DNA from: Candidatus Saccharimonadota bacterium
GTDB lineage: Bacteria > Patescibacteriota > Gracilibacteria > UBA4473
Length of the DNA: 32,000 bases
Reading direction: 5' to 3'
Assembly (NCBI GenBank): GCA_963677105.1
Contig: OY781871.1
Location: 240,001-272,000 of the forward strand
The notes below the pieces were generated by a model. It made no database searches. It was not told the origin of the DNA and was given only the letters and a program-made list of their open reading frames with translations. Numbering within the stretch: the first letter of the stretch is position 1; every line of letters begins with the position of its first letter. The position numbers and the translations under genes were made by a program. Positions 5,813 to 32,000 of this stretch are shown piece by piece.

Positions 5813-5936
5813 GATAAGTTTTAAACAAACACTTTGACAAGTAATTCAATAGAAAAGGACTTGCACTTTTATATACTAATTTCAATATATATATTTTTTA
5901 ACAAATTGTGCACAAATACAGGAAAGTTTTGCACAT

Positions 5937-5985
5937 TCGCTTTGCTCAAAACTTCAAATCACAAAGTACAAAGAACAAATAATTA
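5937..5985 (+). repeat. Intergenic repeat family copy (head TCGCTTTGCTC + A-rich tail)
   Basis: TCGCTTTGCTCAAAACTTCAAATCACAAAGTACAAAGAACAAATAATTA. It contains the core AAAGTACAAA at 5963..5972. Confidence 0.7.
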
Positions 5986-6110
5986 AATCAAAATTTCTAA
6001 TACGCACACAATAAAAAAAGAGACTCGAGCAAAATTCCCAAAAAGCAAGATACAATGTGTTTTGCGAGAAAGAGGAGCAATAGCGAAGCAGTGAAATTTT
6101 TTTGCCATGC

Positions 6111-6139
6111 AAAAAACGCAACAAGCAAAGCTTATTGCG
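6111..6139 (-). terminator. Intrinsic terminator immediately 3' of the tmRNA
   Basis: The minus strand reads CGCAA-T-AAGC-TTT-GCTT-G-TTGCG followed by TTTTTT. This is a 5+4 bp stem with one internal mismatch and a 3-nt loop, then a 6-T run, starting 3 nt after the CCA end. Confidence 0.6.
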
Positions 6140-6142
6140 ACG

Positions 6143-6547
6143 TGGTGGAGGTGGCGAGAATCGAACTCGCGTCCGAAGAGGAAATCAACAACCATCTACG
6201 TTCATAGTTTGATTTGAATACTGAGAAACTGAAAACCAAACAAAAACGAATCTCAGATGACGAAAAATGTCTGCTATTTGATCGTCAAGCAAATAACATG
6301 AGTCTCGGAAAGTTGGATGTGATATCCTTGAGACATTCAATCACACCACATACGAGCGAATCGCTCAAGTACGATTTGTTAAGTTAGGCGTAAGCATACG
6401 CAGGTCGCGCGAAGCGAGTTGCGAATAAACGTCCTAGTTTTCGAGTGTTTGCACTTGAAATTTACTGATCGGATCTACCGGCGGATTCAGCACGCCGTGA
6501 ACGCAAGTTGAGAATTTCGGGTCTCCCCGTCAAAACCTGGCACCCCC
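6143..6547 (-). ncRNA. ssrA: tmRNA (SsrA), one-piece, about 405 nt
   Basis: The minus strand begins GGGGGTGCCAGGTTTTGACGGGGAGACCCGAAA. It ends GCGAGTTCGATTCTCGCCACCTCCACCA, a T-arm with a TTCGATT loop. The 7-bp acceptor stem GGGGGTG/CACCTCC contains the G3:U70 alanine identity pair, followed by discriminator A and CCA. A candidate tag ORF starts at the GCA AAC resume codon, about 96 nt from the 5' end. Confidence 0.9.
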
Positions 6548-6600
6548 GTTTTGTTGAAGAACGTTGACACTCTGACCAAAATCAACATCTACGTCAACTC

Positions 6601-6647
6601 CATATTTGAACTTTGATATTTGAAAATTGAAGTTTTGAGCAAAGCGA
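6601..6647 (-). repeat. Intergenic repeat family copy, directly 3' of the rel stop codon
   Basis: The minus strand reads TCGCTTTGCTCAAAACTTCAATTTTCAAATATCAAAGTTCAAATATG. Its first 21 nt are identical to 5937..5957. Confidence 0.7.
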
Positions 6648-6653
6648 CTCAAC

Positions 6654-17216: not shown

Positions 17217-18248
17217 CTATTTGATAGATTCCAACGCGTCCCGTTCTTTCTTGGAAAGTTTTTTCGGTAAATCGTATATAATTTTCACTAAATGATCTCC
17301 TTGACGACCACTTCTCTTTACTCCTTTTCCACGAATGCGAAGTAACGATCCATCCTGTGTACATTCTGGAATAACAAGTTCCACTTTCCCCCAAAACGTC
17401 TCAACTGGAAATTTTCCACCGAGCAAAATCTGCCATACGGGTAATCTTAATTCTGATAAAATATCCATTCCATGACGTTCAAATTTTCGAGAAGAACGCA
17501 CTTGAATATGTACAAATAAATCTCCTGGATTTCCTCCACGACGCCCCGCCTCTCCTTCTCCTTGAACTCGCAACGTTTCTCCTGTTTGAACTCCAGCGGG
17601 AACTTTTATCGTAATTTTTTTTGATTTTCGCACTCGTCCTTCTCCAGAACATTCTGAACATTTTGAATCAAACACCTTTCCTGTTCCTTCACAATCAGGA
17701 CACACTACTTGTTGTTGAATTATTCCAAATGGAGTACGTGTTTGTTGAGATATTCGACCACTCCCTGAACAAGTTGAACAAGTTTTTTGTCCAGAACCAC
17801 CTTTCCCTTTACATGCTTCACAAAAAACAAATTGTGTAGTAGAGAATTTTTTTGTTATTCCATTCATTGCATCCTCAAAATCTAAAACGACTTCTACCTC
17901 CAAATCTGATCCTCTCATATTTACTTGTCTACCACGACTCGATCCACCTCCACCAAAAAATGAAGAAAAAATATCTTCCATTCCTCCTCCAAAATCAAAA
18001 TTGGATGCGTTAAATCCTCCACCACCAAATCCGCTGCTCGAAGACCCTGCTGAACCAAATTGATCATATTGTGTTCGTTTATTTTCATCACCTAAAACCT
18101 CATATGCTTCGTTTATTTTTTTGAATTCTTCTGCATCCCCTCCTTTATCTGGATGGTGTTTTTTTGCTGCAGCACGAAACGCTTTCTTGATATCCGCTTG
18201 TGAAGCAGACTTTTCAACACCTAGAATTTTATATGGATCATTTTTCAT
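17217..18248 (-). CDS. dnaJ: Molecular chaperone DnaJ (type I: J domain, G/F region, four CxxCxGxG zinc-finger repeats)
   Basis: J domain KNDPYKILGV...HHPDKGG. G/F-rich linker. Zinc-finger repeats CEACKGKG, CSTCSGSG, CPDCEGTG, CSECSGEG. The track start at 18275 is a TTG; the ATG at 18248 (MKNDPYKILGV) fits the family N-terminus. Confidence 0.92.
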   Translation of the reverse strand: MKNDPYKILGVEKSASQADIKKAFRAAAKKHHPDKGGDAEEFKKINEAYEVLGDENKRTQYDQFGSAGSSSSGFGGGGFNASNFDFGGGMEDIFSSFFGGGGSSRGRQVNMRGSDLEVEVVLDFEDAMNGITKKFSTTQFVFCEACKGKGGSGQKTCSTCSGSGRISQQTRTPFGIIQQQVVCPDCEGTGKVFDSKCSECSGEGRVRKSKKITIKVPAGVQTGETLRVQGEGEAGRRGGNPGDLFVHIQVRSSRKFERHGMDILSELRLPVWQILLGGKFPVETFWGKVELVIPECTQDGSLLRIRGKGVKRSGRQGDHLVKIIYDLPKKLSKKERDALESIK

Positions 18249-18268
18249 CGCGAAGAGTGTACAATTTT

Positions 18269-18295
18269 TTAGCAACCTGTCCAGCTGACTGCCAA
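18269..18295. promoter_or_regulatory. Degenerate CIRCE-like inverted repeat (possible HrcA operator) upstream of dnaJ
   Basis: TTAGCAACC-N9-GACTGCCAA versus the CIRCE consensus TTAGCACTC-N9-GAGTGCTAA. It matches 14 of 18 positions with the correct 9-nt spacer, 21-47 nt upstream of the dnaJ ATG. Confidence 0.3.
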
Positions 18296-18378: not shown

Positions 18379-21300
18379 ATGAAACTTCGATCCCTCGGCT
18401 TTCTTCTTGTAGGACTTTCTTCGTTCTTCCTTGTTAATAGTGCAAATGCTACTTGCACTTGGGCAAGATTCTCTTGTAGTCAGCCAGTCGGAACCGACTC
18501 CACTGTGACATTTAACACAATGGAATATTCTCGAAGTAAATATTTCTGGAATACAAATACGTGTGTTTCTGATGATGATCTTGGATCTTTGGACTTTGAT
18601 ATAATTAATGGATCTGCTGTCAGTGCACCAAATGATTGTCTTTTATGGCGAGGAGAATCAATTAACGGAGAAACAAATACGCTTACTGATGATGAATGTT
18701 TTGCTGCTGGATTGATTGCAACAAATATTGGAGGGACTTCTTATGGATGTCCATGTCTTGCATCAGCATGTGTAAATAATTTCGTGAACAATAATGATCG
18801 AATGAAAGAATCTCATTTCACAAGTGTTCGAACATGTACCGGAACAAGCTGTGATTCTCGAGATCCTCTTGGATATGTTCCTGGAACACCAAACTATGAA
18901 GCTGTTCCTGCGTATGATTTTCAGTTAAATGGAGCTGCTGTTCTCGGCGACAAAGTACGTGTTCAAGTGTATTCACACAATAATGCAAAAGAACAATTCC
19001 CTGGGGATGATGACTATGACAATTACATGGCTCATGCCACAAATATTCAATTATCGTGGGATAATGGCGCACACACAGCACAAGGGATCATAACCAGTAA
19101 CGACGCAACACCTACAACGAAAACTTCTCCAACAGTAATATTGCCAACACTTCCTGCGGGAAAACAATATGAACTCGTTGGAGTATGGCACCATTACAAC
19201 AACGCAACTGTTGCAGGATCTCCTTCATATGTAGCAGATCATTTCACACTGAATGATGCCGAACTTTCTGTAAATGGAACTACGGCAACCTTTGATCTGG
19301 GGGATCACGCTTCTTGTTTTGGAAATATTCACCGTGTGTATTTTGATCTACAAGTAACAGATATTCCTGATCCGAGTTTCACTATGACGAAAACAGCGAA
19401 TCCAGATATAAATACTATTTTGTATCCTGGAGATTCTCTTTCTTATTCCATCATGGTAAATAACACTGGAAATACTGTTTTACCTAATTTCAACGCCACA
19501 GACACACTTGATACAAATCTTACTTTCGTTTCTGGTGACAATGGTGTTTCTCATGTAAATGGAGTTGTTACTTTAGATTTTAACAACATTGTTGTTGGAG
19601 AAAGTATAACAAAATCCTTTGTCGTTACAGTAAATGATAATACTCCGTCAGGAACTGATGTTTGCAATCAAGCGAATGCTACAAATTCTGGTTTAGTAAA
19701 TGAATCGAATATTATTTGTCACAATGTGGGAGAGATCCTTACTCCAGATTTTTCTTTAGTTAAATCTGCAAATCCGCCACATCAATCAACTGTTCTTCCA
19801 GGAGAAACTATTACGTACACTGTTACTGCAAACAACGAAGGAAATACTGTTTTATCGAACTTTATTGCAACTGATAACCTCATTCCGAGTGTTTCTTTCG
19901 TTTCTGGTGACACGGGAGTTTCCCATTCAAATGGAATTGTTACATTAAATTTTGGGGATATTTCTATTGGAGGAAATGCAACAAAATCGTTTCAAGTAAC
20001 AGTAAACGATGATGTTTCTGTAGGAGATCAGATTAGTAATCGAGCTTCTGCAACATATGAAAATATTACACATCATTCGAATATTATTCACCATATTGTT
20101 GGAGAAACACTTGTCCCAGATTTCACAATAACGAAATCTGCAAATCCGCCTCATTTATCAACTCTCCTTCCTGAAGAAACACTCACGTACACAATTTCTA
20201 CGGAAAATACCGGGAATACTGATTTATCAAATATTGTAATCACAGATGTATTAAATTCTAACTTAATACCTTCAGGAACTATGCCAAATAATATGTCATA
20301 TGATCCGAATACACACACTATAACTATTACTATTGCAACACTTGAACCTGGTGCTTCTCAAGAAACATCTTTTTCAACAATGGTAATCGAGAATCCGCAA
20401 ACAAATATTAGCTTTTGTAACATCGCTACAGGAATTAATTCTACTGGACTGAATCGTCAATCAAATGAAGTTTGCCATCAAATCGAAGCAGAACCATTTA
20501 CAGACTTTTCAATAACAAAATCTGCAAATCCACCTCATCAGTCGTTACTTAATCCTGGAAATATTCTGGACTATACAATCTCTACGGAAAACACTGGAGA
20601 TACGACTTTATCAAATATTGTTATAACAGATGTATTAAATTCAAACCTGAGTTTTACAGATATTATTCTTCCAAATTATCTATCATACGATCCGAATACA
20701 CACACTGTAACTATTACTATTGCAACACTTGAACCTGGTGCTTCTCAAGAAACATCTTTTTCAACAATGGTAATCGAGAATCCACAAACAAATATTAGCT
20801 TTTGTAACATCGCTACGGGAATTGATTCTACTGGACTGAATCGTCAATCAAATGAAGTTTGTCATCAAATCGAAGCAGAACCATTTACAGACTTTTCAAT
20901 AACAAAGTCTGCAAATCCGCCGCACTTAGCAACTCTCCTTCCCGGAGACATGCTCACATACACGATTTCTACAGAAAACACTGGAAATACTGCTTTATCA
21001 AATATTGTAATTACAGATGTACTGAGTCCATACGTAACATTTTCAGAAATAATGCCGAGTAATGTGTCATATGATCCTGATACACATACGTTAACTATTA
21101 CCATTGCAACACTTGAACCTGGAGAAACTCAGTCGCTAAGTTTTTCTGTAACAATTAACGAAGATTCTCCAACAAATATTAGCTTCTGTAATAAAGCTTC
21201 TGGAGTTGATTCAACAGGAATGTTACGATCGTCTGAAGACATATGTCATTCGGTTGTAGAAGAATTTGTAACTCTTCATAAAACAGCAAATATTCCTGAA

Positions 21301-24264
21301 GATCAAATTGTTACTCCTGGAGAAACTCTCACTTATACCGTTTCTGCTACGAATAATACTTCTGAAAATCTCGATATAATTATAACGGATCCACTTGATG
21401 ATAATCTTTCTTTTGTGGGATTTAGTAATTCAAGTAACATCGAATACGATCCCCAAACACATTCTGTACAAATCACATTACTGAATGTACCCGGATTTAG
21501 TACGGTTCCGGTAAGTTTTTCTGTAATGGTTCTTCATCCTGGACAAGAAAATGTCAAAGTTTGTAATCAATCAAAAGTTCTTTCATACGCCATAAATAAT
21601 GGTTCCATTCCAGATGATAACACTGAGCCAGAAATTTATGGAAACAATGGAAATACTGGTAATACAGAAAATAGAAATGTTTGGGATAATATAATATATG
21701 GAGTTCAAAATTTCTTCGGAGCAATCTCTACGATATTTGGTAATTTAACCGACTCGGTATTCGATATTCAAACGCTTAACCAACTCGTTGCAAGTTCTGT
21801 GGAAATGCCTATTGAAGATCAAAATGACAATAATGAATCTTACTCTGAACGAATTTGTCATTTAGTGGACATCTCTGCTGGAGAAGCCATTGAAATAGTG
21901 AAAACATCTGATCCAATACCATCTACACCAGAATTGGAAACTATCGTACATTTCGGAGACTCAATTATTTATTCTGTCCGTGTTACGAATCATTATGGAA
22001 TCGCTATTTCTGAATCATTAGTAGATGAAATTGATCTCGGACTTTCTTTTGTTGAAGCAGGAAATATATCAAGTACTGATCCAAACGCATCAGGAGAAAT
22101 TATTCGCGTAGATGATCAAACATTACATCTTAATATAATGAATCTTGGAAATGATGAAACAATTATTTTTAATTTTACTACAGAAGTAATTGCAACGGTT
22201 GACTCTGAAATTTGTAATCAAGCTCAATTATTTAATTTTCACTCCAATGATTATACAAGTGAAAACATTTGTGTAACTTTTTCTGATGGAAGTTCTGAAA
22301 ACACTTTTATTGAAAAATCCGTATCTCCTGCCGCTGGACCAATCGCAAATGGAGACACTCTTTCCTATACTGTTCGTTTTGTTTCTGATGAAATAATGCC
22401 TATTACCACAGTATTACTTGATACTCTCGATAATACTGTTTTCGTAGAAAATAGTGGAAGTATTACGAGTTCAGATTCATCAATTACTGGATCTATTACA
22501 TATGAAACTCTCACAAAAACTCTTTCTTTATATGTAAATGATTTAACTCAGGGAGGATGGATTGAATTTCGATTTGATGCACTTGTTACCAGTGACTCAC
22601 TGCCAAGTGAAATTTGTAACCAAGCGTATGATATTAATGAAAATTGGTATTCAAATATTGTCTGTGTTTCTACCGATACTGGTGGCGGACCTGGACCTGG
22701 GGGCGGAGAAGTAATTAGTACTATTGGAATCTGTACAGATCTCGCAAGCGGAAGTGTTACTTGCCGAAAACACACACCACATAGATCTTTTGGCGAAAGC
22801 GAATATTTAGACTGGAAAGAATGTAAACGAAATAATCCGACTATTGCTGGAATTGAACTTTGTACACGAGAATGGGCAAGATCGGTTGGACTTCTTGCGC
22901 TTGGAGAATGTCATCCTGATAATATCGCTGCAGCTGGTACATGGTGGCAATGGAATGGATCGGATAATCTATATACATGGCCTGGTGATTTTAATAATGA
23001 ATGTAATACGGAAATTATTCCACCTGGTCCTTGTATGGAATCATGTGCAGAAATGACTGCTCTAATAGAAAAAACAACTTCAACCCCAGTTGTAGCGAAA
23101 GAAGAAGAGGCTATATATAATCTAAAACTAACACTTACTCCTGATATTACTGACCAAAATACCGAAATAAATATTACGGGAATGAAAGTATATGACCTTA
23201 CTATTCCTGCAAATTCTGGATGGCTCTTTGATCATGCTCTTCAAAATCCATCATCTAATTGGGAATGGAAAGGAATGAATGATGATCCTGCTTCCAATTA
23301 CTTTGAATGGCGTGGTTCTGATTTTTTATTAGAAACAGAGCAAACGATGGATATTGACTATGAAATGAATACAGCACTTACTATTAAAGCTGATACAGCC
23401 CAAGTAAATAATGTTGCATTTGCCGTTGTGGAATATGAAATACAAACATTCGATCCTTTTTCTGGGCTCACTGCACTGTCTGGTCCAAGACATCTTCATG
23501 TTGGAAATGCATTAAATTTATGTGACAACAGATCTGTCTTAGAAATTATTGATGCGAGTACTTCATCTCCTGGATCTTCCGAAACAGTAGAAATTATTCG
23601 TCCATATATAGAGGTGCGAGGAGGAGGAAATGTGGGAGTACAAAAACTTGATGACAATACAGAAAATCCATTCGGTGGATTGGAAACTGGTTTCTCCGAA
23701 GACATTACAACCGGAGAAATTTTAACCGGAACTGAAACAGATGACCTTACTGAAACTATAGACCTATGGAGTGAATACGAAGATCAATCAACTACCACTG
23801 AAAATATCTTCGGTGTAAACTGGATCACAACTTCTGATAATGCTGGAGTATATTTTCATGAAGGAGACATAACTCTTTCCGCTAGTGATAATTTTGTGGG
23901 TTCAAAAACATTCGTCATAGATGGAAAACTTCAGATTGAAGGAAATTTTGAACCAGACGGATTTGGTGCATTTATTGCAGACAGAATTGCTATACAACAA
24001 GACGTAACGAATATGACAGGAGTTTTTATTGCCGATGGTGGCGACATCGTTTCTCTCGGTGAATCTGATAAACAGCTTGTCATTTCTGGAGCGCTTATGG
24101 GAGATGCAACCGATCTTCTTGATCGACGAAAATTCATTGGAGTTGATCCAGAGAACACTCTCGAACCAAGTATAAAAATCAATTACGATTTACGTCTTCT
24201 CGATGCAACACCACCCGCTCTTGAGTTATTCTTGAGTGAAGACTGGACACAAACTATAGAATGA
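18379..24264 (+). CDS. Giant secreted surface protein with about 9 DUF11-type repeat modules, a Gly/Pro hinge, a Cys-rich insert and a beta-helix-like C-terminal domain
   Basis: 1961 aa with signal peptide MKLRSLGFLLVGLSSFFLVNSANA and a Cys-rich N-terminal ~330 aa. Repeated modules of the form (D/E)F-x-(I/L)-x-K-(S/T)-A-N-P...PG-(D/E)-x-(I/L)-x-Y-T-(I/V)...N-x-G-N-T...(I/A)-T-D-x-L resemble the DUF11 / 'conserved repeat domain' family. No LPXTG motif or C-terminal TM anchor was seen. Confidence 0.8.
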   Translation: MKLRSLGFLLVGLSSFFLVNSANATCTWARFSCSQPVGTDSTVTFNTMEYSRSKYFWNTNTCVSDDDLGSLDFDIINGSAVSAPNDCLLWRGESINGETNTLTDDECFAAGLIATNIGGTSYGCPCLASACVNNFVNNNDRMKESHFTSVRTCTGTSCDSRDPLGYVPGTPNYEAVPAYDFQLNGAAVLGDKVRVQVYSHNNAKEQFPGDDDYDNYMAHATNIQLSWDNGAHTAQGIITSNDATPTTKTSPTVILPTLPAGKQYELVGVWHHYNNATVAGSPSYVADHFTLNDAELSVNGTTATFDLGDHASCFGNIHRVYFDLQVTDIPDPSFTMTKTANPDINTILYPGDSLSYSIMVNNTGNTVLPNFNATDTLDTNLTFVSGDNGVSHVNGVVTLDFNNIVVGESITKSFVVTVNDNTPSGTDVCNQANATNSGLVNESNIICHNVGEILTPDFSLVKSANPPHQSTVLPGETITYTVTANNEGNTVLSNFIATDNLIPSVSFVSGDTGVSHSNGIVTLNFGDISIGGNATKSFQVTVNDDVSVGDQISNRASATYENITHHSNIIHHIVGETLVPDFTITKSANPPHLSTLLPEETLTYTISTENTGNTDLSNIVITDVLNSNLIPSGTMPNNMSYDPNTHTITITIATLEPGASQETSFSTMVIENPQTNISFCNIATGINSTGLNRQSNEVCHQIEAEPFTDFSITKSANPPHQSLLNPGNILDYTISTENTGDTTLSNIVITDVLNSNLSFTDIILPNYLSYDPNTHTVTITIATLEPGASQETSFSTMVIENPQTNISFCNIATGIDSTGLNRQSNEVCHQIEAEPFTDFSITKSANPPHLATLLPGDMLTYTISTENTGNTALSNIVITDVLSPYVTFSEIMPSNVSYDPDTHTLTITIATLEPGETQSLSFSVTINEDSPTNISFCNKASGVDSTGMLRSSEDICHSVVEEFVTLHKTANIPEDQIVTPGETLTYTVSATNNTSENLDIIITDPLDDNLSFVGFSNSSNIEYDPQTHSVQITLLNVPGFSTVPVSFSVMVLHPGQENVKVCNQSKVLSYAINNGSIPDDNTEPEIYGNNGNTGNTENRNVWDNIIYGVQNFFGAISTIFGNLTDSVFDIQTLNQLVASSVEMPIEDQNDNNESYSERICHLVDISAGEAIEIVKTSDPIPSTPELETIVHFGDSIIYSVRVTNHYGIAISESLVDEIDLGLSFVEAGNISSTDPNASGEIIRVDDQTLHLNIMNLGNDETIIFNFTTEVIATVDSEICNQAQLFNFHSNDYTSENICVTFSDGSSENTFIEKSVSPAAGPIANGDTLSYTVRFVSDEIMPITTVLLDTLDNTVFVENSGSITSSDSSITGSITYETLTKTLSLYVNDLTQGGWIEFRFDALVTSDSLPSEICNQAYDINENWYSNIVCVSTDTGGGPGPGGGEVISTIGICTDLASGSVTCRKHTPHRSFGESEYLDWKECKRNNPTIAGIELCTREWARSVGLLALGECHPDNIAAAGTWWQWNGSDNLYTWPGDFNNECNTEIIPPGPCMESCAEMTALIEKTTSTPVVAKEEEAIYNLKLTLTPDITDQNTEINITGMKVYDLTIPANSGWLFDHALQNPSSNWEWKGMNDDPASNYFEWRGSDFLLETEQTMDIDYEMNTALTIKADTAQVNNVAFAVVEYEIQTFDPFSGLTALSGPRHLHVGNALNLCDNRSVLEIIDASTSSPGSSETVEIIRPYIEVRGGGNVGVQKLDDNTENPFGGLETGFSEDITTGEILTGTETDDLTETIDLWSEYEDQSTTTENIFGVNWITTSDNAGVYFHEGDITLSASDNFVGSKTFVIDGKLQIEGNFEPDGFGAFIADRIAIQQDVTNMTGVFIADGGDIVSLGESDKQLVISGALMGDATDLLDRRKFIGVDPENTLEPSIKINYDLRLLDATPPALELFLSEDWTQTIE
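19378..21600 (+). repeat. Tandem array of six consecutive DUF11-type coding modules (period 366-387 nt)
   Basis: Module starts lie near 19378, 19744, 20116, 20503, 20887 and 21268, each opening with ...TK(T/S)ANP.... Further diverged modules start near 21885, 22303 and 23068. Confidence 0.7.
20296..20927 (+). repeat. Near-identical ~245-nt direct repeat pair inside the giant gene (20296-20540 and 20683-20927, offset 387 nt)
   Basis: Both copies encode SYDPNTHT(I/V)TITIATLEPGASQETSFSTMVIENPQTNISFCNIATGI(N/D)STGLNRQSNEVCHQIEAEPFTDFSITKSANPPH. By eye there are about 10 nucleotide differences over ~245 nt, far fewer than between other modules. Confidence 0.8.
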
Positions 24265-27068
24265 ATATTGATTGGACTTATATCGGACTCTGGCTCCAGG
24301 CATACTGGATACAAGGAATCTTCATCACTATTGGAGGAATCTTTGGGATCAAATTAATTGTATGGCTTACACGAATTTTTCATCATAAATGGACTGCGAA
24401 AAAACTGGTTCATTTGCAAATTTCTCTCCCCAGAAATGATTCCAAACTTGATGCCGAACATCGAACAGAAAAAGATTTTCGTGAAACAATTGGGAAAATG
24501 GAACAATTGTTTCGTTCATTACACGAGACGCGAGATTTAAATCTTTACAATATCGTGTTTCATCGCATGCTCTGGCAAGAGCCACGATTTTCTTTTGAAT
24601 TACAGTTTGAAAAACGAGAACTTTCTTTTGTGATTTGTTGCGCACCATACTATCAAAACATAGTAATGAAACAGGTTACAACATTTTACCCTGATGCAGA
24701 TGTAGTTCCACTTACTCCTGATAAACGATTTAATTTAACCGAAAATAAGGCCGTTCATAATGGGTATTTTTTCTATACAAAAAGAGCTTTTTGGTTTCCG
24801 ATTAATACATATAAAAAAGTTGAAGATGATCCATTAAATGGTCTTGCTAATTCGTTTGCAAAGTTAAACGATGACGAAAAAGCTTGTATTCAGATAATTC
24901 TCCATCCGCAAGGAGGAAAATGGCAAAAGGCAGCAAAATCACAAGGGGATTCTCTCTTCAAAGGAAAAAAAGATTCTGGAAAAGGAATTCCCTTTCTTGG
25001 TCCTATTTTAAATATTTTATGGCTTCCAATAAAAATTCTGATTCGTGGATATAATCCTGAAACAGATACTATTTCAAATGCTCCTGGTGCCAAAAGTGGA
25101 GATTCCTATGTACGAATGTTGCAGTCTGAAGAAGAACTTTATAAATCTGTAGGAGAAAAATCTGTACAATCTGGATTTAATACCACAATACGAATTGTGG
25201 CGAGCGCTCCAAATAAAGATAGAGTATCACAAATTCTCAATGGTATTTTCGTCGCTTTTAATATTTTCAAAAGTAAAGGAGGAAATAAAATGGAAAATCG
25301 TCGTATTGTTCCATTTAATATAATTAATACTCCGTTTATTTACCATAATTATAAATATAGATTACCCGCATTTTTTGAAAAAAAATCACTGCTGTGCTCT
25401 GAAGAAGTCGCTTCTCTTTTTCATTTCCCAGATGCTCGATATAATCGTATTCCCACAATTAAATGGCTTCCATATAAAGTGCTTCCACCGCCAATTAATA
25501 TGCCAGAAGAAGGTATTATTTTAGGAGAATCTATTTATCGTGGAATTTCAAAATCAGTTCGATTTAAACGAAATGATCGAACTCGTCATCAATACATAAT
25601 CGGGAAATCTGGTTCAGGAAAATCTGTTTTACTGTGGAACCAAGCAGTACAAGATATTGAAAATGGCGAAGGAGTATGTGTTGTAGATCCTCATGGAGAT
25701 CTAATAGATGATATTGCAGCATGTGTCCCAAAACATCGAGCAAAAGACGTTGTCATGTTTGATCCAGGTGACAAAGAACGCCCAATGGGGTTAAATATTC
25801 TAGAAACAACAAGCGCAGAACAATGGGATCGAGCTTCTCTCGACGCAATGGAAATTTTCATTAAATTATTTGGAAATGAGATTTTTGGACCACGTATCCA
25901 ACACTATTTCCGAAATGCATGTCTCAGCCTCATGGAAGATACTGAAGAGGGAGCAACGTTAATTGATATTCCACGAATGTTTATTGATGAAGAATTTCAA
26001 AAATATAAAGTATCAAAGGTGAAGAATGTCGTAGTACGAAACTTTTGGGAAAATGAAATGGCTAACACTGGAGATCGGGAAAAACAAGAAATGATTCCCT
26101 ATTTTACATCAAAATTTGGTCCATTTGTTACGAATACGACAATGCGTAATATTATCGGTCAGACAAAGTCTGCATTTAATGTTCGTGAAGTAATGGATAA
26201 TCAAAAAATATTATTAATTAATCTCTCTAAAGGAAAAATTGGAGGAATTAACTCCCAACTTCTTGGGTTGGTTGTTGTGTCAAAAATAAATATGGCAGCA
26301 ATGTCACGTGCCGATATGGCCGCCGAAGATCGAAAAGATTTTTACCTTTATGTAGATGAGTTTCAAAACTTTGCCTCAGACACGTTCGCTACAATTTTGT
26401 CTGAAGCTCGTAAATATAGACTGAATTTAATTATGGCTCACCAGTATATTGCACAATTATCTGAAGGTGCTGGAGGAGTGACTCAAGGTGGAGCAAATTC
26501 AAAAATAAAAGATGCTGTATTTGGAAATGTAGGAACAATGATGAACTTTAAGGTGGGAGCAGAAGATGCTGAATACTTTGAGAAAGAATATTCTCCTCTT
26601 TTATCGGCGCAAGATATTCTCTCTATTGCGAACTATAAGGCTTACGTAAAATTGAATATAAATAACACAACAAGTCGTGTCTTTTCAATGGATACTCTCT
26701 ATGATCCAAGTAAAAAGAATGACAAAGTATTAGAAATTATGAAAAAATATTCACGAATGAAATACGGACGAAAAAAAGAATTTGTTGATGCAGAAATTGA
26801 AGCACGAATGGGAATAGATAGCCTTTCATCCATTGACGAAGCAGCTAAAAAAGATAAGACTGTGAATGATAATCTCCTTGGCGACACACCAATACCAACA
26901 ATAAATGAGGAATCTATTGCCGCAAGCTCTGAAAATCTTCAAGCACAAGTTGCTACAGACAAAGGTGCTGGAAATTTTGCCCCAAATAAGATTCCAAAAT
27001 CATTACAAAAAATTATTTCCACATCTCCTTCGCAAGCCATTGCAAACGAGGCTCTTAATAATACATAA
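24261..27068 (+). CDS. Membrane-anchored P-loop ATPase of the FtsK/HerA/VirD4 (TraD/TraG coupling-protein-like) superfamily with a ~430-aa uncharacterised N-terminal domain
   Basis: 935 aa. The start ATG overlaps the upstream stop (ATGA at 24261..24264). N-terminal hydrophobic segment: IGLWLQAYWIQGIFITIGGIFGIKLIVWL. Walker A GKSGSGKS at 25602..25625. Walker B FYLYVDEFQNF with DE at 26355..26360. The C-terminal tail is low-complexity. Confidence 0.75.
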   Translation: MNIDWTYIGLWLQAYWIQGIFITIGGIFGIKLIVWLTRIFHHKWTAKKLVHLQISLPRNDSKLDAEHRTEKDFRETIGKMEQLFRSLHETRDLNLYNIVFHRMLWQEPRFSFELQFEKRELSFVICCAPYYQNIVMKQVTTFYPDADVVPLTPDKRFNLTENKAVHNGYFFYTKRAFWFPINTYKKVEDDPLNGLANSFAKLNDDEKACIQIILHPQGGKWQKAAKSQGDSLFKGKKDSGKGIPFLGPILNILWLPIKILIRGYNPETDTISNAPGAKSGDSYVRMLQSEEELYKSVGEKSVQSGFNTTIRIVASAPNKDRVSQILNGIFVAFNIFKSKGGNKMENRRIVPFNIINTPFIYHNYKYRLPAFFEKKSLLCSEEVASLFHFPDARYNRIPTIKWLPYKVLPPPINMPEEGIILGESIYRGISKSVRFKRNDRTRHQYIIGKSGSGKSVLLWNQAVQDIENGEGVCVVDPHGDLIDDIAACVPKHRAKDVVMFDPGDKERPMGLNILETTSAEQWDRASLDAMEIFIKLFGNEIFGPRIQHYFRNACLSLMEDTEEGATLIDIPRMFIDEEFQKYKVSKVKNVVVRNFWENEMANTGDREKQEMIPYFTSKFGPFVTNTTMRNIIGQTKSAFNVREVMDNQKILLINLSKGKIGGINSQLLGLVVVSKINMAAMSRADMAAEDRKDFYLYVDEFQNFASDTFATILSEARKYRLNLIMAHQYIAQLSEGAGGVTQGGANSKIKDAVFGNVGTMMNFKVGAEDAEYFEKEYSPLLSAQDILSIANYKAYVKLNINNTTSRVFSMDTLYDPSKKNDKVLEIMKKYSRMKYGRKKEFVDAEIEARMGIDSLSSIDEAAKKDKTVNDNLLGDTPIPTINEESIAASSENLQAQVATDKGAGNFAPNKIPKSLQKIISTSPSQAIANEALNNT

Positions 27069-28877
27069 ATGAAAAAAATATCCATCGGCTGTCTTTGTCT
27101 TATGCTTCTTACAGGAAATGTACACGCAAAACTAATTGGACATTGGCCTCTCAGACCAAAAACTCCTTTACGTGTAGAATGGAATGCCGAAAATACTGAT
27201 AATACTTGGAAAAATGGATACGATATTGCTGATTTAGCGACAACTGTTCCTCAAGTTGTAACTATTGATGATAAAACACAAGTATGGGAACAAGTTGGTC
27301 CCAATAATATTTTTTCAAGTTCTCTTATTCCGGTAGATCCGAGTAAAGAATATAGACTTTCTGGAAAATTCCGCAGCACAGGAAAAACTCTTTCAAAAAT
27401 ATATTTTGGATTTGTGCCAATGTTAAACAATGAGGCAAAAAGTGAACAAGCATCTCAAGTCTCCTTTCGAAAAGGAAATGATGGAATATTTATGGAGTTA
27501 GATAAAGGAACCATTGTCGTAAAGTATGATTTAACAGATTGGAACAGCGATAAAGACCCATTTACCTCTCGTTTCATGGGATTTTATTATGATGGAGACA
27601 CAAATAAGCCGGCTGATTTTATAATGGCTTCGCCTACATATGGAAAAGATCAAGGAGCTTTTACGAGTATAGAAAAAAATATCATCAATCTTTCTGCTGA
27701 TCCTCCAGAAGAAGTTATGAATCAATTAATTCCAGGACGTTCTGTTATAAAAAATCACTATACAGGTGCTGGAAGTTATCTCTATTCTGCCGCTGAAAAT
27801 GAGACTGTTACAGAAAAGTGGACCACTTATTCGGCTATATCAACTGGAGATGGTTGGACTCAATCAGCTAGCACAAATTTTCGTCCTTTTACTCGATACG
27901 TACGACTTGTACTATTGCTAAATTATGATCAAGACAAGGAATCGGTTATTCAATTTGATGATCTTGTCCTTGAAGAAGTAAACGAACTAGGACTAACTGT
28001 ATATGATGAATCTCCTATTGAAGATCTCGCCATAGATTCTCATAATCATGGAAGAAAAATTGGAAGAACTTCTACAATAAATCGAGATGTCTACACTGCT
28101 GGTGTGAATAATATTCCTAATGGAGCAATGCAATTTGATGGAGCGAGTGATTATATTTCTTTACCAGATGACATAGGATATTCCACTGAGGTTTCTGCTT
28201 TTGCCTGGTTCAAATCAAAAGGTGAACCCAAAGGCGGATATCACGTAATATTTGGTGGACAAGAACTTGAAATAAGTATCGATTCCAAGCAAGTTCTTCG
28301 AACAGGTATTTTTACTGATAAAAGATATATTTCAAATTATTCCACGAAATTATTAGACGGAGAATGGCATCATATCGGATTCACTTTCAATGGAAAGCAA
28401 AAAATAACGTACATCGATGGAAAAAATATTGGTACCAAATCTATCTATGGACATCTCACCTCTTCGTTTAAAGACCGAACCATTGGAAGGTTTGGAAATA
28501 GTGATGACTATTATTTAAATGGAGCACTTGCTGATATACGAATTTATGATCACGCACTTTCTCTTCAAGAAGTAAATAATATTGCTTACAAAGAAGATAC
28601 TTTCGCTTCAGATACCGATATCGAAACAATAAATGATAAAAAATTAGCAAGACATAATTTATTGTACTGGGATATTATAAATAAAAAATATTGGATAGGA
28701 CTTTTCGATAAAACTGCTCAAACAATAAAACCATCAAAAGACACTTTTAAAGATACTGCTGAATTATCTACACTTCAAAGTGAAAATAAGGCAACAAACA
28801 AGTTGTTATATTGGGACACGGATAAAAAGAAATATTTCATCGGACAACCCGACGGCACAATGCGTCCTCTGCGATGA
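27069..28877 (+). CDS. Secreted protein with an N-terminal CBM-like jelly-roll region, a LamG/concanavalin-A-like lectin domain and two C-terminal LLYWD...KKY-x-IG repeats
   Basis: 602 aa. The ATG directly abuts the upstream TAA. Signal peptide MKKISIGCLCLMLLTGNVHA. LamG-like region at about 28120-28590: GAMQFDGASDYISLPDD, FAWFKSKG, DGEWHHIGFTFNG, LNGALADIRIYDHALSLQEVNNI. The N-terminal half ends VIQFDDLVLEEV, as in CBM4/9-type modules. Confidence 0.75.
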   Translation: MKKISIGCLCLMLLTGNVHAKLIGHWPLRPKTPLRVEWNAENTDNTWKNGYDIADLATTVPQVVTIDDKTQVWEQVGPNNIFSSSLIPVDPSKEYRLSGKFRSTGKTLSKIYFGFVPMLNNEAKSEQASQVSFRKGNDGIFMELDKGTIVVKYDLTDWNSDKDPFTSRFMGFYYDGDTNKPADFIMASPTYGKDQGAFTSIEKNIINLSADPPEEVMNQLIPGRSVIKNHYTGAGSYLYSAAENETVTEKWTTYSAISTGDGWTQSASTNFRPFTRYVRLVLLLNYDQDKESVIQFDDLVLEEVNELGLTVYDESPIEDLAIDSHNHGRKIGRTSTINRDVYTAGVNNIPNGAMQFDGASDYISLPDDIGYSTEVSAFAWFKSKGEPKGGYHVIFGGQELEISIDSKQVLRTGIFTDKRYISNYSTKLLDGEWHHIGFTFNGKQKITYIDGKNIGTKSIYGHLTSSFKDRTIGRFGNSDDYYLNGALADIRIYDHALSLQEVNNIAYKEDTFASDTDIETINDKKLARHNLLYWDIINKKYWIGLFDKTAQTIKPSKDTFKDTAELSTLQSENKATNKLLYWDTDKKKYFIGQPDGTMRPLR

Positions 28878-28936: not shown

Positions 28937-29560
28937 ATGAAATCTATTGCAAACATTCTCGTAAAACACGATATCGTGCGTACAAACTTCAGTAATCCTT
29001 TTGTTTGGGCAAGTGGTATTCATTCTCCAATTTATTGTGATTGTCGAGAATTAATGAGTCTCACGGAAGCGAGAAATGAAATTGTCGATGGATTTATTGA
29101 ATTAATTAAAACTAAAAATCTTCCTACTGATACAATTGCCGGAACAGCAACTGCCGGAATTCCATGGGCTGCATTTGTAGCAGAACGATTAGCGAAACCA
29201 ATGCTTTATGTCCGAGCAAAACCAAAAGATCATGGAGCTGGAAAAATGGTAGAAGGACGAGGAGAACAAAATAAAAATATTCTTGTAGTTGAAGATGCGA
29301 TTAGTACTGGAGGAAGTAGTATTACTTCTGCAATTGCACTCCGAAATGAATTAAATGCAACTGTCGAACATATTTTGGGAATATTTACTTGGAGTACTCC
29401 AAAAATTTCTGAAAATGAAAAAGAACACCATATAAAATTTCATTCTCTCACTAATTTTTCTGAAATTGTAGAAGCACTTGAATCCGCAGGAAAAATTACA
29501 ACTGAAGAACAAGCTTCATTAAGTCGATTTCACGAAAATCCTCGTAAATGGTGGAAGTAG
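28937..29560 (+). CDS. pyrE: Orotate phosphoribosyltransferase
   Basis: 207 aa. FVWASGIHSPIYCDCR N-terminal motif and PRPP-binding loop ILVVEDAISTGGS. Confidence 0.88.
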   Translation: MKSIANILVKHDIVRTNFSNPFVWASGIHSPIYCDCRELMSLTEARNEIVDGFIELIKTKNLPTDTIAGTATAGIPWAAFVAERLAKPMLYVRAKPKDHGAGKMVEGRGEQNKNILVVEDAISTGGSSITSAIALRNELNATVEHILGIFTWSTPKISENEKEHHIKFHSLTNFSEIVEALESAGKITTEEQASLSRFHENPRKWWK

Positions 29561-29650
29561 GCGCTTCGCGCTTCGAATATAAAAGTACAAAGATCAAAAT
29601 AGAGATATTTGAATTTTGTTATTTGCTATCTGTACCTTGGAGCGAAGCGA
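29561..29650. repeat. Inverted pair of intergenic-repeat copies forming a ~90-nt imperfect palindrome between convergent genes
   Basis: The left arm GCGCTTCGCGCTTCG starts 1 nt after the pyrE stop. The right arm is GGAGCGAAGCGA (29639..29650). CGCTTCGC (29562..29569) is perfectly complementary to GCGAAGCG (29642..29649). The interior contains AAAGTACAAA (29582..29591) and TTGTTATTTG (29616..29625). Confidence 0.7.
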
Positions 29651-32000
29651 TTAATTTTGCTGCTTCTGCGCGAGATAATGCTGCATGTGGATGAAATAAT
29701 CCATCAGTATATCCTTGAACCATTCCTCGACGTACAGCTTCTTCCACCCAAACACGTTCCCATCCAACAGTGTCTGAAAAAATTGGAGTACTCAATAAAT
29801 CTAATTTTTGAGGAATAATCTTTTCTATAGCAAGTAATATTTTCACCGCTTCAGCACGCGATAAATCTTGTTTTGGTCGAAATGTACCATCTATATATCC
29901 TCCAATTATTTTTTTTGCTGCTAAAAACTGAACAGCATCAAATGTTTCATCTTCTCGTAATAAATCTGTAAATTGAGGAATAAGTGGGGCTCTGCTAAAA
30001 TTTTCTCCATATCTATCTAGAACAAGCATTTGAACAAAGTCTCCTCTCGAAACAGCTCTTTCTAAATGGAGTTTCCCATTCAATTCTGGCTGGAGAATAT
30101 TTTTTTCAACCAAATCCAAGACAAATGGCATTGCCCAGTGATTCGGATCAAAATCACGAACAAATGCTCTGTCACTTGGTAAAGCATTTTCTCTTCCTCC
30201 AGAAATAATTGAAAAACAACGAAATAAAGTACAAAACTCAACTTCTGTCGCAACACCAAATGGTTCTGCAAATACTTCAGGGAAAAGAACAAATAATTGT
30301 CGTTGTGCTGCAGAAAAAGGTGCAATTTTTATCCATCGATCTGGTGTCACTCGATCGTGGAAATCAAATGATCTCCAAATATTTTTCATATCTTTCCACA
30401 AAGGAACTCCGTTTACAAGCTTAATCCCAGTGTCTTGCAACTCCGTATTTATTTTCCACAATTTATCAACAACAAGCCAAATATCTGTAGACGTAATCAG
30501 TACTTTTTCTAACTCAGTACGCGTTGTGTTTTCAGTGAAAAACAAAGTTTTAATTCCAAATCTTCGTGAAATAGAAAGAATCGCATCCAAAGATTCTGTA
30601 GAAAATATATGTTGCTTCTTTTCTCCCGTTTCTAATATTGTTGCTATACGCGAAGCAGCCCATTGTCGCGGAAGCCAATCAAACCAAGTCCGATCCTCAT
30701 TTGATTGCAAAACAGAATCAATTCTTCCAACGAATACTGGTGAAAGCGAAGTAGATTGAGGAATCAATTCTGTCGGGAGAATTTCTTTTTCATTCTCTTG
30801 CAAAAGAACATCTGATGCATACAAAGGATGACGACGATTTTCTACTGAAGAAAGTAATTCTTCTGCTTCTCTTGTTCCTAAAACACTTCTAAATGCTCGT
30901 TGTACAACTCCTTTCGTCGCTACAGCAATCTTTTTCCATACAGAAGATTGTTCCGGTGAAAAAAACTGTAATACCGCAATCGGAGCTCCTCCAGAAACTG
31001 CTGAAATATCTTTCGCATCAGAAAAAATCATAAGAATATGATCTGTCACTGGTTGACTCACTCGAGAAAGAATCTCTGATATATCACATTTTCCTAATGG
31101 ATTTCTCCACGCAGTAGATTCAATGATTTTTTTTCTCAACGCAAGAGTATTTGGTTCAAAACTCTCATCATCTCCCACGAGCCATTCAATTCCTTCTGTT
31201 CCAATAAATGCTACTCGAAAAGATCTTTCCTCTTGGTGTTCTAATAAAAAACGAAGCAATTCCTGTACATGTGCCCATACATCTGACATTGATCCTGATG
31301 TGTCTAATAAAAGCGTAACATTATGAAACTCTTGCACTGGTGGCAACGAACGAAAATGCGCTACATATTCATGATCCCCTGTAAAAAATCGCGCTTCTGG
31401 ATCATTTTCTTTTGACCAAATAATTCGTAAATTTTTTGTTGGAAGAAATGAGGCAATTTGACGCAACGCAACAATTCCTGTTTCTGAACGATCCATTATT
31501 GCCTCCGATAAAAATGGCGACCAAAAATGTTGAATTGGGTCCATTTGTGCCACAGAAAATTCTATATGAAATAATTCATCTTCTATTCCGTCATTTAAAA
31601 AGATTTCTATCCCATCAAATCCTCCTTGATGAGAAACCGGAATATTGTATTCCAGAACCACTTCTACTGATTCATTCGGGAGAATAGAAAATTCTGTTGT
31701 TCGAAATACGCGCGTCCATGGATTTTCTGCCAGTCTAAAAAAACGAATATCTTTTTTTTCTTCTGCTGCGTCCGCTAGAGCGTCTAATCGAGCTCTATCT
31801 TGAAATTCTACAAGTGAAATTCCATTCGCATTTATAAAACATTTAATGTCTTTTGTTCCTAAGGAAGCTGGCCACCAAGAATGAGTTTTTAAGAGCTTTA
31901 ATGTTGGATTGAAAAAAACAGATCGTATTCGCACATGAGCGTCTTTTTCTATAACTGAAATTTCCACAGTCCTTTCCTTACGAATAAGCCCAGAATCCGG
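29619..32000 (-). CDS. VIT-like + von Willebrand factor A domain protein with two C-terminal SLH (S-layer homology) repeats; 5' end probably outside the window
   Basis: The track starts at GTG 31967, but the frame stays open to base 32000 (PDSGLIRKERTVEISVIEKDAHVRIRSVFFNPT, VIT-like). vWA MIDAS motif: VTLLLDTSGSMSD. SLH repeats: FTDL...DAVQFLAAKKIIGGYIDGTFRPKQDLSRAEAVKILL and FSDTVGWERVWVEEAVRRGMVQGYTDGLFHPHAALSRAEAAKLIASL. Confidence 0.75.
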   Translation of the reverse strand, partial: PDSGLIRKERTVEISVIEKDAHVRIRSVFFNPTLKLLKTHSWWPASLGTKDIKCFINANGISLVEFQDRARLDALADAAEEKKDIRFFRLAENPWTRVFRTTEFSILPNESVEVVLEYNIPVSHQGGFDGIEIFLNDGIEDELFHIEFSVAQMDPIQHFWSPFLSEAIMDRSETGIVALRQIASFLPTKNLRIIWSKENDPEARFFTGDHEYVAHFRSLPPVQEFHNVTLLLDTSGSMSDVWAHVQELLRFLLEHQEERSFRVAFIGTEGIEWLVGDDESFEPNTLALRKKIIESTAWRNPLGKCDISEILSRVSQPVTDHILMIFSDAKDISAVSGGAPIAVLQFFSPEQSSVWKKIAVATKGVVQRAFRSVLGTREAEELLSSVENRRHPLYASDVLLQENEKEILPTELIPQSTSLSPVFVGRIDSVLQSNEDRTWFDWLPRQWAASRIATILETGEKKQHIFSTESLDAILSISRRFGIKTLFFTENTTRTELEKVLITSTDIWLVVDKLWKINTELQDTGIKLVNGVPLWKDMKNIWRSFDFHDRVTPDRWIKIAPFSAAQRQLFVLFPEVFAEPFGVATEVEFCTLFRCFSIISGGRENALPSDRAFVRDFDPNHWAMPFVLDLVEKNILQPELNGKLHLERAVSRGDFVQMLVLDRYGENFSRAPLIPQFTDLLREDETFDAVQFLAAKKIIGGYIDGTFRPKQDLSRAEAVKILLAIEKIIPQKLDLLSTPIFSDTVGWERVWVEEAVRRGMVQGYTDGLFHPHAALSRAEAAKLIASLQGTDSK

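Follow-up and report, generated by a model that had tools for sequence, protein, structure and literature searches.

A DUF8128-containing, coupling-protein-like ATPase between a CLIPPER fibrillar adhesin and a LamG-domain protein: probably known parts in a lineage-specific arrangement in Gracilibacteria-related bacteria

We analyzed a window of 32,000 nucleotides (nt) from Candidatus Saccharimonadota bacterium (assembly GCA_963677105.1, contig OY781871.1, positions 240,001 to 272,000 of the forward strand; all coordinates below are counted from the first letter of this stretch), in which three co-oriented genes are packed on the plus strand almost without spacing. According to the list of open reading frames (ORFs), these genes encode a giant fibrillar-adhesin-like protein of 1961 amino acids (aa; 18379–24264), an ATPase of 935 aa that resembles the coupling proteins (T4CPs) of type IV secretion systems (T4SSs) (24261–27068), and a LamG-domain protein of 602 aa (27069–28877). 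A first-pass annotation, made from the sequence alone, had reported the same three genes and proposed that they form an undescribed, functionally coupled system for attachment and translocation. The coordinates and lengths it gave all match our reading, and both junctions it had remarked upon can be read in the sequence: the stop codon of the giant gene and the start codon of the ATPase gene overlap in the tetranucleotide ATGA (24261–24264), and the TAA that ends the ATPase gene (27066–27068) is immediately followed by the ATG of the LamG gene at 27069 (together 27066–27071).

Some Gracilibacteria, the label borne by the nearest relatives, read TGA as glycine (code 25), which would abolish the ATGA overlap. 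This code was ruled out for the window, where four of the 14 long ORFs end in TGA and not one in-frame TGA is present among approximately 11,000 codons. As TGA is a true stop in the window, genetic code 11 applies and the ATGA overlap is genuine. A scan of the locus for promoters and terminators returned nothing above chance, and because the junctions leave no space for such signals, we infer that the three genes are co-transcribed. The G+C content is even across the locus (0.33–0.41) and thus gives no sign of a recently acquired island.

The giant protein starts with a Sec signal peptide (MKLRSLGFLLVGLSSFFLVNSANA, with cleavage before the following T; 18379–18450, plus strand), whose n, h, and c regions and A-x-A site were read directly from the translation and not with a dedicated predictor. 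The signal peptide is followed by a cysteine-rich head (approximately aa 25–330), a stalk of CLIPPER (DUF11) repeats (19369–21700, plus strand), immunoglobulin (Ig)-like regions, a cysteine-rich linker, and a C-terminal module of 165 aa (23767–24261, plus strand). The stalk was delimited by Pfam, NCBIfam and repeat alignment. Pfam detected DUF11/CLIPPER in six stretches (E = 4e-47) as well as DUF7507 and DUF7927, and NCBIfam detected TIGR01451 and the isopeptide domain TIGR04226 (E = 4.9e-28). At least six CLIPPER/DUF11 units are present, three of which are recent duplicates that form a tandem array at 20126–21122 on the plus strand (Tandem Repeats Finder: period 387 nt, 2.6 copies, 82% matches). 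Lys, Asp, and Asn positions (ITK...VITD...FCN) are kept in five repeats, and each repeat contains one cysteine pair. In the CLIPPER stalks of fibrillar adhesins, this triad forms an intramolecular isopeptide bond according to crystallography (Costa et al. 2025, Protein Sci; PMC12617251), and the stalk of the giant protein is probably stabilized by such bonds as well. The head (residues 1–330) has no significant Pfam match, and no surface anchor was found in the form of a transmembrane (TM) or hydrophobic segment, an LPXTG motif, an SLH domain, or any other Pfam anchor domain. The initial description of a Sec-signal protein built of DUF11-type repeats and lacking a visible anchor therefore stands.

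The C-terminal module is the best-conserved part of the giant protein, with 43–63% identity in relatives versus 24–44% for the repeats. Based on tblastn searches against all loci and on the invariant positions of the alignment, it occurs in one copy per locus and always ends just 5' of the ATPase gene; with one copy per locus, a role as a sorting or anchor domain common to other surface proteins was ruled out. Only three homologues of the module were found in the database. Its AlphaFold2 (AF2) model, with a predicted local distance difference test (pLDDT) value of 47.7 and only generic Ig-like matches in Foldseek, was too poor for a fold assignment. The length of the giant protein ranges from approximately 1,100 to 2,328 aa in relatives, which fits a fast-evolving adhesin. 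Like the described CLIPPER/DUF11 fibrillar adhesins (PMC12617251), the protein possesses a signal peptide, an N-terminal non-repeat head, and a tandem stalk with the Lys/Asp/Asn triad and disulfides at a total length of about 2000 aa, whereas it differs from them by carrying a clade-specific conserved C-terminal module in place of a recognizable anchoring or sorting domain. By its sequence, the protein represents a typical member of the CLIPPER fibrillar adhesins, though one that lacks a recognizable anchor.

The LamG protein comprises a signal-peptide-like N-terminus, also read in the translation, an unannotated region of 330 aa, a concanavalin-A-like Laminin_G_3 domain (aa 357–503; 28137–28577, plus strand; Pfam E = 1.6e-21), and a C-terminal pair of short LLYWD..KKY.IG repeats. 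Its earlier description as a secreted lectin with a carbohydrate-binding-module-like part and a LamG domain was correct for the LamG domain and the signal peptide, whereas aa 1–350 have no Pfam match at E ≤ 1, CBM_4_9 (PF02018) included. Few relatives of the protein are full-length, and most matches cover the LamG domain alone. The public gene call (P0274, 591 aa) begins 11 codons downstream of the ATG at 27069; since most of the signal peptide is lost with this later start, the longer ORF is to be preferred. The C-terminal repeats (28581–28874, plus strand) consist of a short motif that occurs twice, as NLLYWDIINKKYWIGLFD and as KLLYWDTDKKKYFIGQPDG; neither copy has a family match, and together they may be a small binding or anchoring repeat. 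Tandem LamG homologues, the second of which is fused to Fibrinogen_C, were observed at locus L100 (10001–14172, plus strand), where they adjoin pyrE and a T4SS_pilin gene of 164 aa.

The ATPase consists of a TM helix, a DUF8128 domain, a P-loop motor of the TrwB/VirD4 type, and a low-complexity tail. Hydropathy places the N-terminal helix at aa 16–40 (24306–24380, plus strand), in agreement with a helix at residues 16–46 in the AF2 model. Because positively charged residues come after this helix (positive-inside rule), DUF8128 and the motor are both predicted to be cytoplasmic, with only about 15 residues located outside the cell. DUF8128 (PF26449, approximately 350 aa; aa ~45–400, 24393–25460, plus strand) was assigned from precomputed Pfam matches on homologues and has an alpha/beta fold in the model. 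A search for this domain yielded 756 clusters at 50% identity, and in complete proteins of ~800–930 aa it is always N-terminal and directly follows the membrane segment. The motor region (aa ~420–780) matches T4SS-DNA_transf (PF02534; E = 8e-9) and TrwB_AAD_bind (PF10412; E = 2.5e-6, spanning aa 433–736), both of which exceed the gathering score, together with TraG-D_C and, more weakly, DUF87. The best NCBIfam matches were TraD and the VirD4-like CD1115, with scores far under the equivalog cut-offs, and the nearest solved relative by sequence was TrwB of R388 (1.7e-6 in a PDB profile search), followed by DotL. Walker A (GKSGSGKS, aa 448–455; 25602–25625, plus strand) aligns with the P-loop of TrwB, and Walker B (YLYVDE, aa 695–700; 26343–26360, plus strand) was located by the TrwB alignment of domain 2. 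In an alignment of 21 homologues, Walker A, residues D699 and E700 of Walker B, and the subsequent AHQ motif (aa 726–728) are invariant. These data agree with the N-terminal membrane segment and the C-terminal Walker A/B core of the coupling-protein type seen in the first-pass annotation, and the profile check against coupling-protein and DUF87/HerA families that it had suggested returned the former clearly and the latter weakly.

Like TrwB, VirD4, and DotL, the ATPase thus has an N-terminal anchor and a P-loop motor, and the model suggests an all-alpha insertion with helices at aa 519–632 between Walker A and Walker B, in a region where the pLDDT is only 55–80. It differs from these proteins in the extra DUF8128 between anchor and motor and in the single predicted TM helix instead of the usual two. 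The AF2 model as a whole has a mean pLDDT of 61.6, with 80–90 for DUF8128 and 50–80 for the motor. In Foldseek, the best matches were full-length VirB4/TrwK (E ~1e-9 over ~800 columns, at a TM score of only ~0.2), and Cag-beta, DotL, and TrwB ranked below. Checking the structure of the ATPase alone, as had been recommended, hence gave a well modelled DUF8128, whereas the motor was modelled with less confidence and the whole fold matched VirB4 ahead of the T4CPs. As Foldseek favours VirB4/TrwK for the whole model, DUF8128 may match the N-terminal domain of VirB4 structurally, although the sequence and plasmid context of the family are those of a T4CP paralogue. A second hydrophobic segment, IPFLGPILNILWLPIKILI (aa 243–261; 24987–25043, plus strand), lies within DUF8128 between loops that are modelled with low confidence, and could be a membrane-dipping or amphipathic helix.

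Full-length homologues of the ATPase with 23–28% identity (query residues ~70–860) are present on plasmids of Bacillus, Staphylococcus, Clostridium, the Streptomyces group, Sulfolobus, and haloarchaea. On all three plasmids examined (B. subtilis, S. aureus, and Embleya), the homologue directly adjoins a Replic_Relax (PF13814) gene and stands among 'conjugal transfer' genes, separate from the AAA_10 VirB4. The ATPase of the window matches the relaxase-adjacent ATPase of the B. subtilis plasmid with E = 7e-40 and 26% identity over 550 aa, including part of the N-terminal domain. BLASTP found no similarity between the window ATPase and the VirB4 of the same plasmid, and the VirB4 signatures AAA_10 and CagE_TrbE_VirB had no Pfam match in the window ATPase. 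Because it matches the relaxase-adjacent plasmid ATPase and not that plasmid's VirB4, homology places the window ATPase with the coupling proteins among the paralogous ATPases of monoderm-type conjugation. The monoderm plasmid ATPases in the T4CP position, which are annotated as 'DUF87 domain-containing protein' or 'type IV secretory system conjugative DNA transfer family protein', differ from it in their genomic surroundings: they are embedded in complete transfer clusters that also encode relaxase-like, VirB4, PrgI, and hydrolase proteins, and no gene for any of these lies near the window ATPase. A pWBG749-family label for the staphylococcal plasmid homologues could not be confirmed and is not claimed.

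Among the scored candidates, 2306 significant matches to the ATPase were found (58–84% identity over ≥90% of the length). The protein is present in at least 448 species-representative genomes labelled as Peribacteria/Peregrinibacteria, Gracilibacteria, 'Altimarinota', or Patescibacteria, and identities within the family range from 53 to 84% across orders. In public annotations, the homologues carry the same Pfam matches, T4SS-DNA_transf and TrwB_AAD_bind. A weak NCBIfam match to the archaeal DNA-translocating ATPase CedD is limited to the P-loop (E = 1e-4, far under the cut-off). A survey reported 5,713 VirD4-type T4CP homologues in 2,918 Patescibacteria genomes, of which only 148 were near virB4, and a near absence of relaxases (Quinonero-Coronel et al. 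2025, Microb Genom; PMC12102498). The window ATPase resembles these orphan T4CPs in being chromosomal, VirD4/TrwB-like, and without a nearby virB4 or relaxase gene. Hence, the ATPase belongs to a large catalogued orphan family of the VirD4 type whose members routinely lie beside unrelated housekeeping genes, which comes close to an outcome that the first-pass annotation had itself named as speaking against its proposal. DUF8128 and an adhesin neighbour were not described in the survey, which detected no PrgB-like adhesins; the adjacency to a CLIPPER adhesin in one subclade is thus an addition to that study and not a contradiction.

Gene neighbourhoods were compared across 80 genome loci and additional loci from a protein look-up, with 14 informative lineages in the subclade whose ATPase identity to the window protein is ≥65%. 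In the window, the three genes are flanked on the left by a divergently oriented dnaJ (17217–18275, minus strand; Pfam) and on the right by pyrE, encoding orotate phosphoribosyltransferase (28937–29560, plus strand; NCBIfam and Pfam), both of which are syntenic in relatives. The locus order in relatives is dnaJ, the giant gene where present, the ATPase gene, the LamG gene where present, and pyrE, and the ATPase keeps this chromosomal position between dnaJ and pyrE in relatives of 65–83% identity. A giant homologue directly upstream of the ATPase was found only in the ≥65% subclade and there in 10 of the 14 lineages, namely the window and loci L102 (81% ATPase identity), L001 (83%), L003 and L018 (both 70%), L005 (68%), L025, L027, and L077 (all 67%), and L009 (65%). 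It is absent from L017, L026, L020, and L024, the latter two of which show DnaJ-ATPase-PyrE with no space for a giant gene. The distance between the giant and ATPase genes varies from −4 to +185 nt across lineages. A LamG gene after the ATPase, and hence the full trio, is restricted to three lineages (the window, L102, and L003), and the best LamG homologue outside these lineages has PyrE and a small gene for a T4SS_pilin as neighbours; neither an ATPase nor a giant gene lies within 10 kb of it. Neither giant nor LamG homologues occurred in any of the approximately 60 loci of the wider family (53–60% ATPase identity). The expectation that the trio is kept as neighbours in related genomes was thus not borne out. 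The synteny of the ATPase with DnaJ and PyrE equals that with the giant gene although these two are functionally unrelated to it, and adjacency within the subclade is therefore weak evidence of function.

In the wider family, the neighbours of the ATPase as judged by sequence include GlyRS, D-Tyr-tRNA deacylase (Dtd), RecJ, CarA, and LCP-, RlpA-, MltG-, and DsbA-like proteins. A protein of approximately 392 aa that resembles LCP (LytR/CpsA/Psr) proteins, identified by sequence only, follows the ATPase in 15 loci of the 53–60% clade (for example, L054 12615–13793). Its gene often overlaps the ATPase stop by 14 nt, and this association is more widespread than that with the adhesin. In the 59% clade (L007), the ATPase gene is preceded by a gene for a 333-aa protein; the possibility that this protein is a remnant of the giant protein was rejected, as the two show no similarity.

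Relaxase, VirB4, and channel genes are absent from the window, as noted at first pass, and the neighbours are housekeeping and surface-protein genes in the window and in relatives alike. Integrase genes, repeat boundaries, and tRNA targets were not found in the window either, and its only RNA gene is a transfer-messenger RNA (tmRNA) gene 12 kb away. Downstream of pyrE, the window contains a gene for an SLH-domain surface protein (29619–31967, minus strand; Pfam SLH 1e-20), which is kept in relatives. At L001, L005, and L009, PyrE is followed by the SLH protein, a PKD protein, and then a fusion protein of ~1,540–1,640 aa with an N-terminal VirB2-like T4SS_pilin domain (PF18895) and many PKD repeats. 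The fusion genes (L001 18306–22817, L005 18829–22829, and L009 20944–23111, all on the minus strand) lie beside a second PKD protein, 6–8 kb downstream of the ATPase. It is unusual for a pilin domain to be joined to such a giant array of PKD repeats. Based on these relatives, a T4SS-related pilin-PKD gene probably lies a few kb past the window end (position 32000). Past the pilin-PKD gene of L010, a relative with 62% identity, we found GuaA, a sigma factor, Fe-hydrogenase, NuoF, HAD, and EamA, and no VirB4, VirB6, or relaxase. In a distant genome (L016), two tandem pilin genes stand among LysRS, FolP, and RelA in otherwise housekeeping surroundings. No complete canonical T4SS was found next to the locus in the relatives examined. 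A canonical T4SS or conjugative element directly outside the window, which would have spoken against a novel system, was likewise not encountered in relatives, where only the pilin-PKD fusion lies downstream. This picture matches the dispersed T4SS organization described for Patescibacteria (PMC12102498).

Taken together, we consider it probable that the locus combines known parts, a stand-alone T4CP-like ATPase, a fibrillar adhesin, and a LamG protein, in a lineage-specific arrangement, and that the three genes do not make up a machine that is both new and conserved; on balance, the data speak for conserved synteny more than for a machine. According to this explanation, the ATPase would be a homologue of a monoderm-type T4CP that stands alone on the chromosome, is inherited vertically, and is presumably a hexamer; it would most likely energize or gate the transfer of DNA or protein via a dispersed, relaxase-less T4SS encoded elsewhere and derived from the mating-pair formation class FATA (MPF-FATA). 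The dnaJ-ATPase-pyrE backbone would have become a landing site for fast-evolving surface-protein genes in a subclade related to Gracilibacteria and Peribacteria, with a Sec-exported CLIPPER-stalk adhesin upstream and, in some lineages only, a Sec-exported LamG lectin-like protein downstream. Both would act outside the cell, presumably by binding a host or partner cell. Because they carry Sec signal peptides, the two flanking proteins are presumably not exported by the cytoplasmic ATPase and are not plausible substrates of it, and the functional link among the three genes may at most be the co-expression of contact and transfer functions. The idea of an undescribed, functionally coupled three-gene system is thus not upheld, considering that the ATPase belongs to a catalogued orphan family, that the trio occurs in only three lineages, and that a LamG homologue exists elsewhere without the ATPase. 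As for the proposed attachment-plus-translocation module, the gene packing and the parts are as described, whereas coupling is not supported, with both flanking proteins being Sec-exported and the giant-ATPase pair missing in four of 14 lineages.

Several observations weigh against this explanation. The presumed T4SS role of the window ATPase derives from its family membership, as no VirB4, VirB3, VirB6, or TrsD could be shown for the genome from the 32-kb window. In S. epibionticum, a T4CP homologue is dispensable for epibiotic growth, other T4SS genes are essential, and exaptation of the T4CP was considered possible (PMC12102498); the ATPase family may hence do something other than serve a T4SS. 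The modelled build of the ATPase appears two-domain and VirB4-like, unlike that of a textbook T4CP, because Foldseek places full-length VirB4 above the T4CPs. Moreover, the giant-ATPase pair persists across a rather deep subclade, within which ATPase identity falls to 65%, the conserved C-terminal module always abuts the ATPase gene, and the window, L001, and L102, which are the three closest lineages, share the 4-nt overlap of the two genes. These three features would also fit a real functional partnership.

Such a partnership would be an attach-and-translocate module whose parts were selected in this subclade for co-expression and joint action: the adhesin, with or without the lectin, would hold a host or partner cell in place, and the ATPase would then power the passage of DNA or effectors through a T4SS channel. 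We regard this as unlikely. The retention of the pair in 10 of 14 lineages, the stop/start overlaps, and the invariable position of the C-terminal module immediately 5' of the ATPase argue for it, as do the VirB2-like pilin-PKD fusion and other PKD/SLH surface proteins encoded a few kb away in relatives, and adhesins are known in T4SS operons of Gram-positive bacteria (PMC12102498). However, dnaJ and pyrE share the same synteny and adjacency means little in small genomes, four lineages and the entire 53–60% clade have the ATPase without the giant gene, the intergenic gap can reach 185 nt, and the lectin is distributed patchily and also occurs elsewhere in the absence of the ATPase. With both flanking proteins using Sec and about 15 extracellular ATPase residues, direct contact is also unlikely. 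A more specific version, in which the DUF8128 ATPase was recruited in the code-11 subclade into an operon with an anchorless adhesin whose C-terminal module docks it to the T4SS or a pilus, including the pilin-PKD fusion, to yield a dedicated episymbiont device for host attachment plus transfer, appears rather improbable to us.

It also seems quite doubtful that the ATPase was exapted as a housekeeping DNA translocase, for instance for DNA import in the manner of archaeal Ced/Ted, or for another envelope process, with the surface genes as unrelated neighbours. The very high conservation of the family (53–84% across orders) and its vertical, housekeeping context are in line with this scenario, and envelope genes are frequent nearby (amidase/SpoIID in the window and LCP-, RlpA-, MltG-, and DsbA-like proteins in the wider family, the latter judged by eye and not all verified by profile). 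The dispensability of the t4cp gene for epibiosis and its possible exaptation (PMC12102498) point in the same direction, as do the homologues on Sulfolobus and haloarchaeal plasmids and the match to CedD, which is, however, weak and confined to the P-loop. Direct evidence for another role is lacking, and the closest homologues with an interpretable context are T4CPs of conjugation clusters. T4CP homologues are normally part of mobile elements, and the three genes could in principle be what is left of a conjugative or mobile element that integrated and lost the genes for its relaxase and channel, in keeping with plasmid-borne homologues in Firmicutes, Actinobacteria, and archaea. We rejected this option as very improbable based on the even G+C content, the fixed position between dnaJ and pyrE in relatives of 65–83% identity, and the intact and invariant catalytic motifs. 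The absence of an integrase, relaxase, repeat boundary, or tRNA target from the window and the near-universal presence of the family in these lineages also stand against it.

The closest conceptual parallel is plasmid pCF10, on which the Sec-exported adhesin PrgB is co-encoded with a T4SS and the coupling protein PcfC and stabilizes cell-cell contact. The window locus is similar in that a surface adhesin and a T4SS-type ATPase appear to share one transcription unit. It differs from pCF10 in that its adhesin has neither PrgB homology nor an LPXTG motif, that a mobile element, a relaxase, and adjacent channel genes are absent, and that the pairing is confined to one subclade. The use of adhesins by monoderm T4SSs is documented more generally (PMC12102498).

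The remaining genes on the left side of the window have housekeeping functions (RelA/SpoT, PBP2, transketolase, a PIN protein, and amidase/SpoIID, in addition to DnaJ), and PyrE and the SLH protein make up the right side. An apparently ORF-free gap (5813–6653) is occupied by the tmRNA gene (6143–6547, minus strand; Rfam RF00023, 99.6 bits), for which ARAGORN predicts the tag peptide ANTRKLGRLFATRFARPAYAYA. Two adjoining genes on the minus strand (2468–4942 and 4952–5812) encode secreted Gly/Thr/Cys-rich proteins of 824 and 286 aa with signal-peptide-like N-termini and no Pfam or NCBIfam match. Overall, the region contains many unannotated surface proteins.

New here are the restriction of the arrangement to one clade, the homology over the full length between DUF8128 ATPases and relaxase-adjacent ATPases of monoderm and archaeal plasmids, the signal of a VirB4-like overall fold, and the nearby pilin-PKD fusion. 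These are useful annotations and do not amount to a categorically new system. The N-terminal DUF8128 emerges as the defining feature of these ATPases, whose kinship is with ATPases of monoderm and archaeal plasmids and not with VirB4. Across the family, the ATPase gene resides in housekeeping and cell-envelope contexts, and in one subclade it is flanked by a fast-evolving adhesin and lectin. Patescibacteria are thought to depend on host cells. In S. epibionticum, the one Patescibacterium with genetics, a relaxase-less T4SS is essential for epibiotic growth (PMC12102498). If the link between the adhesin and the ATPase is functional, it would provide a concrete starting point for understanding how attachment and transfer are linked in an episymbiont.

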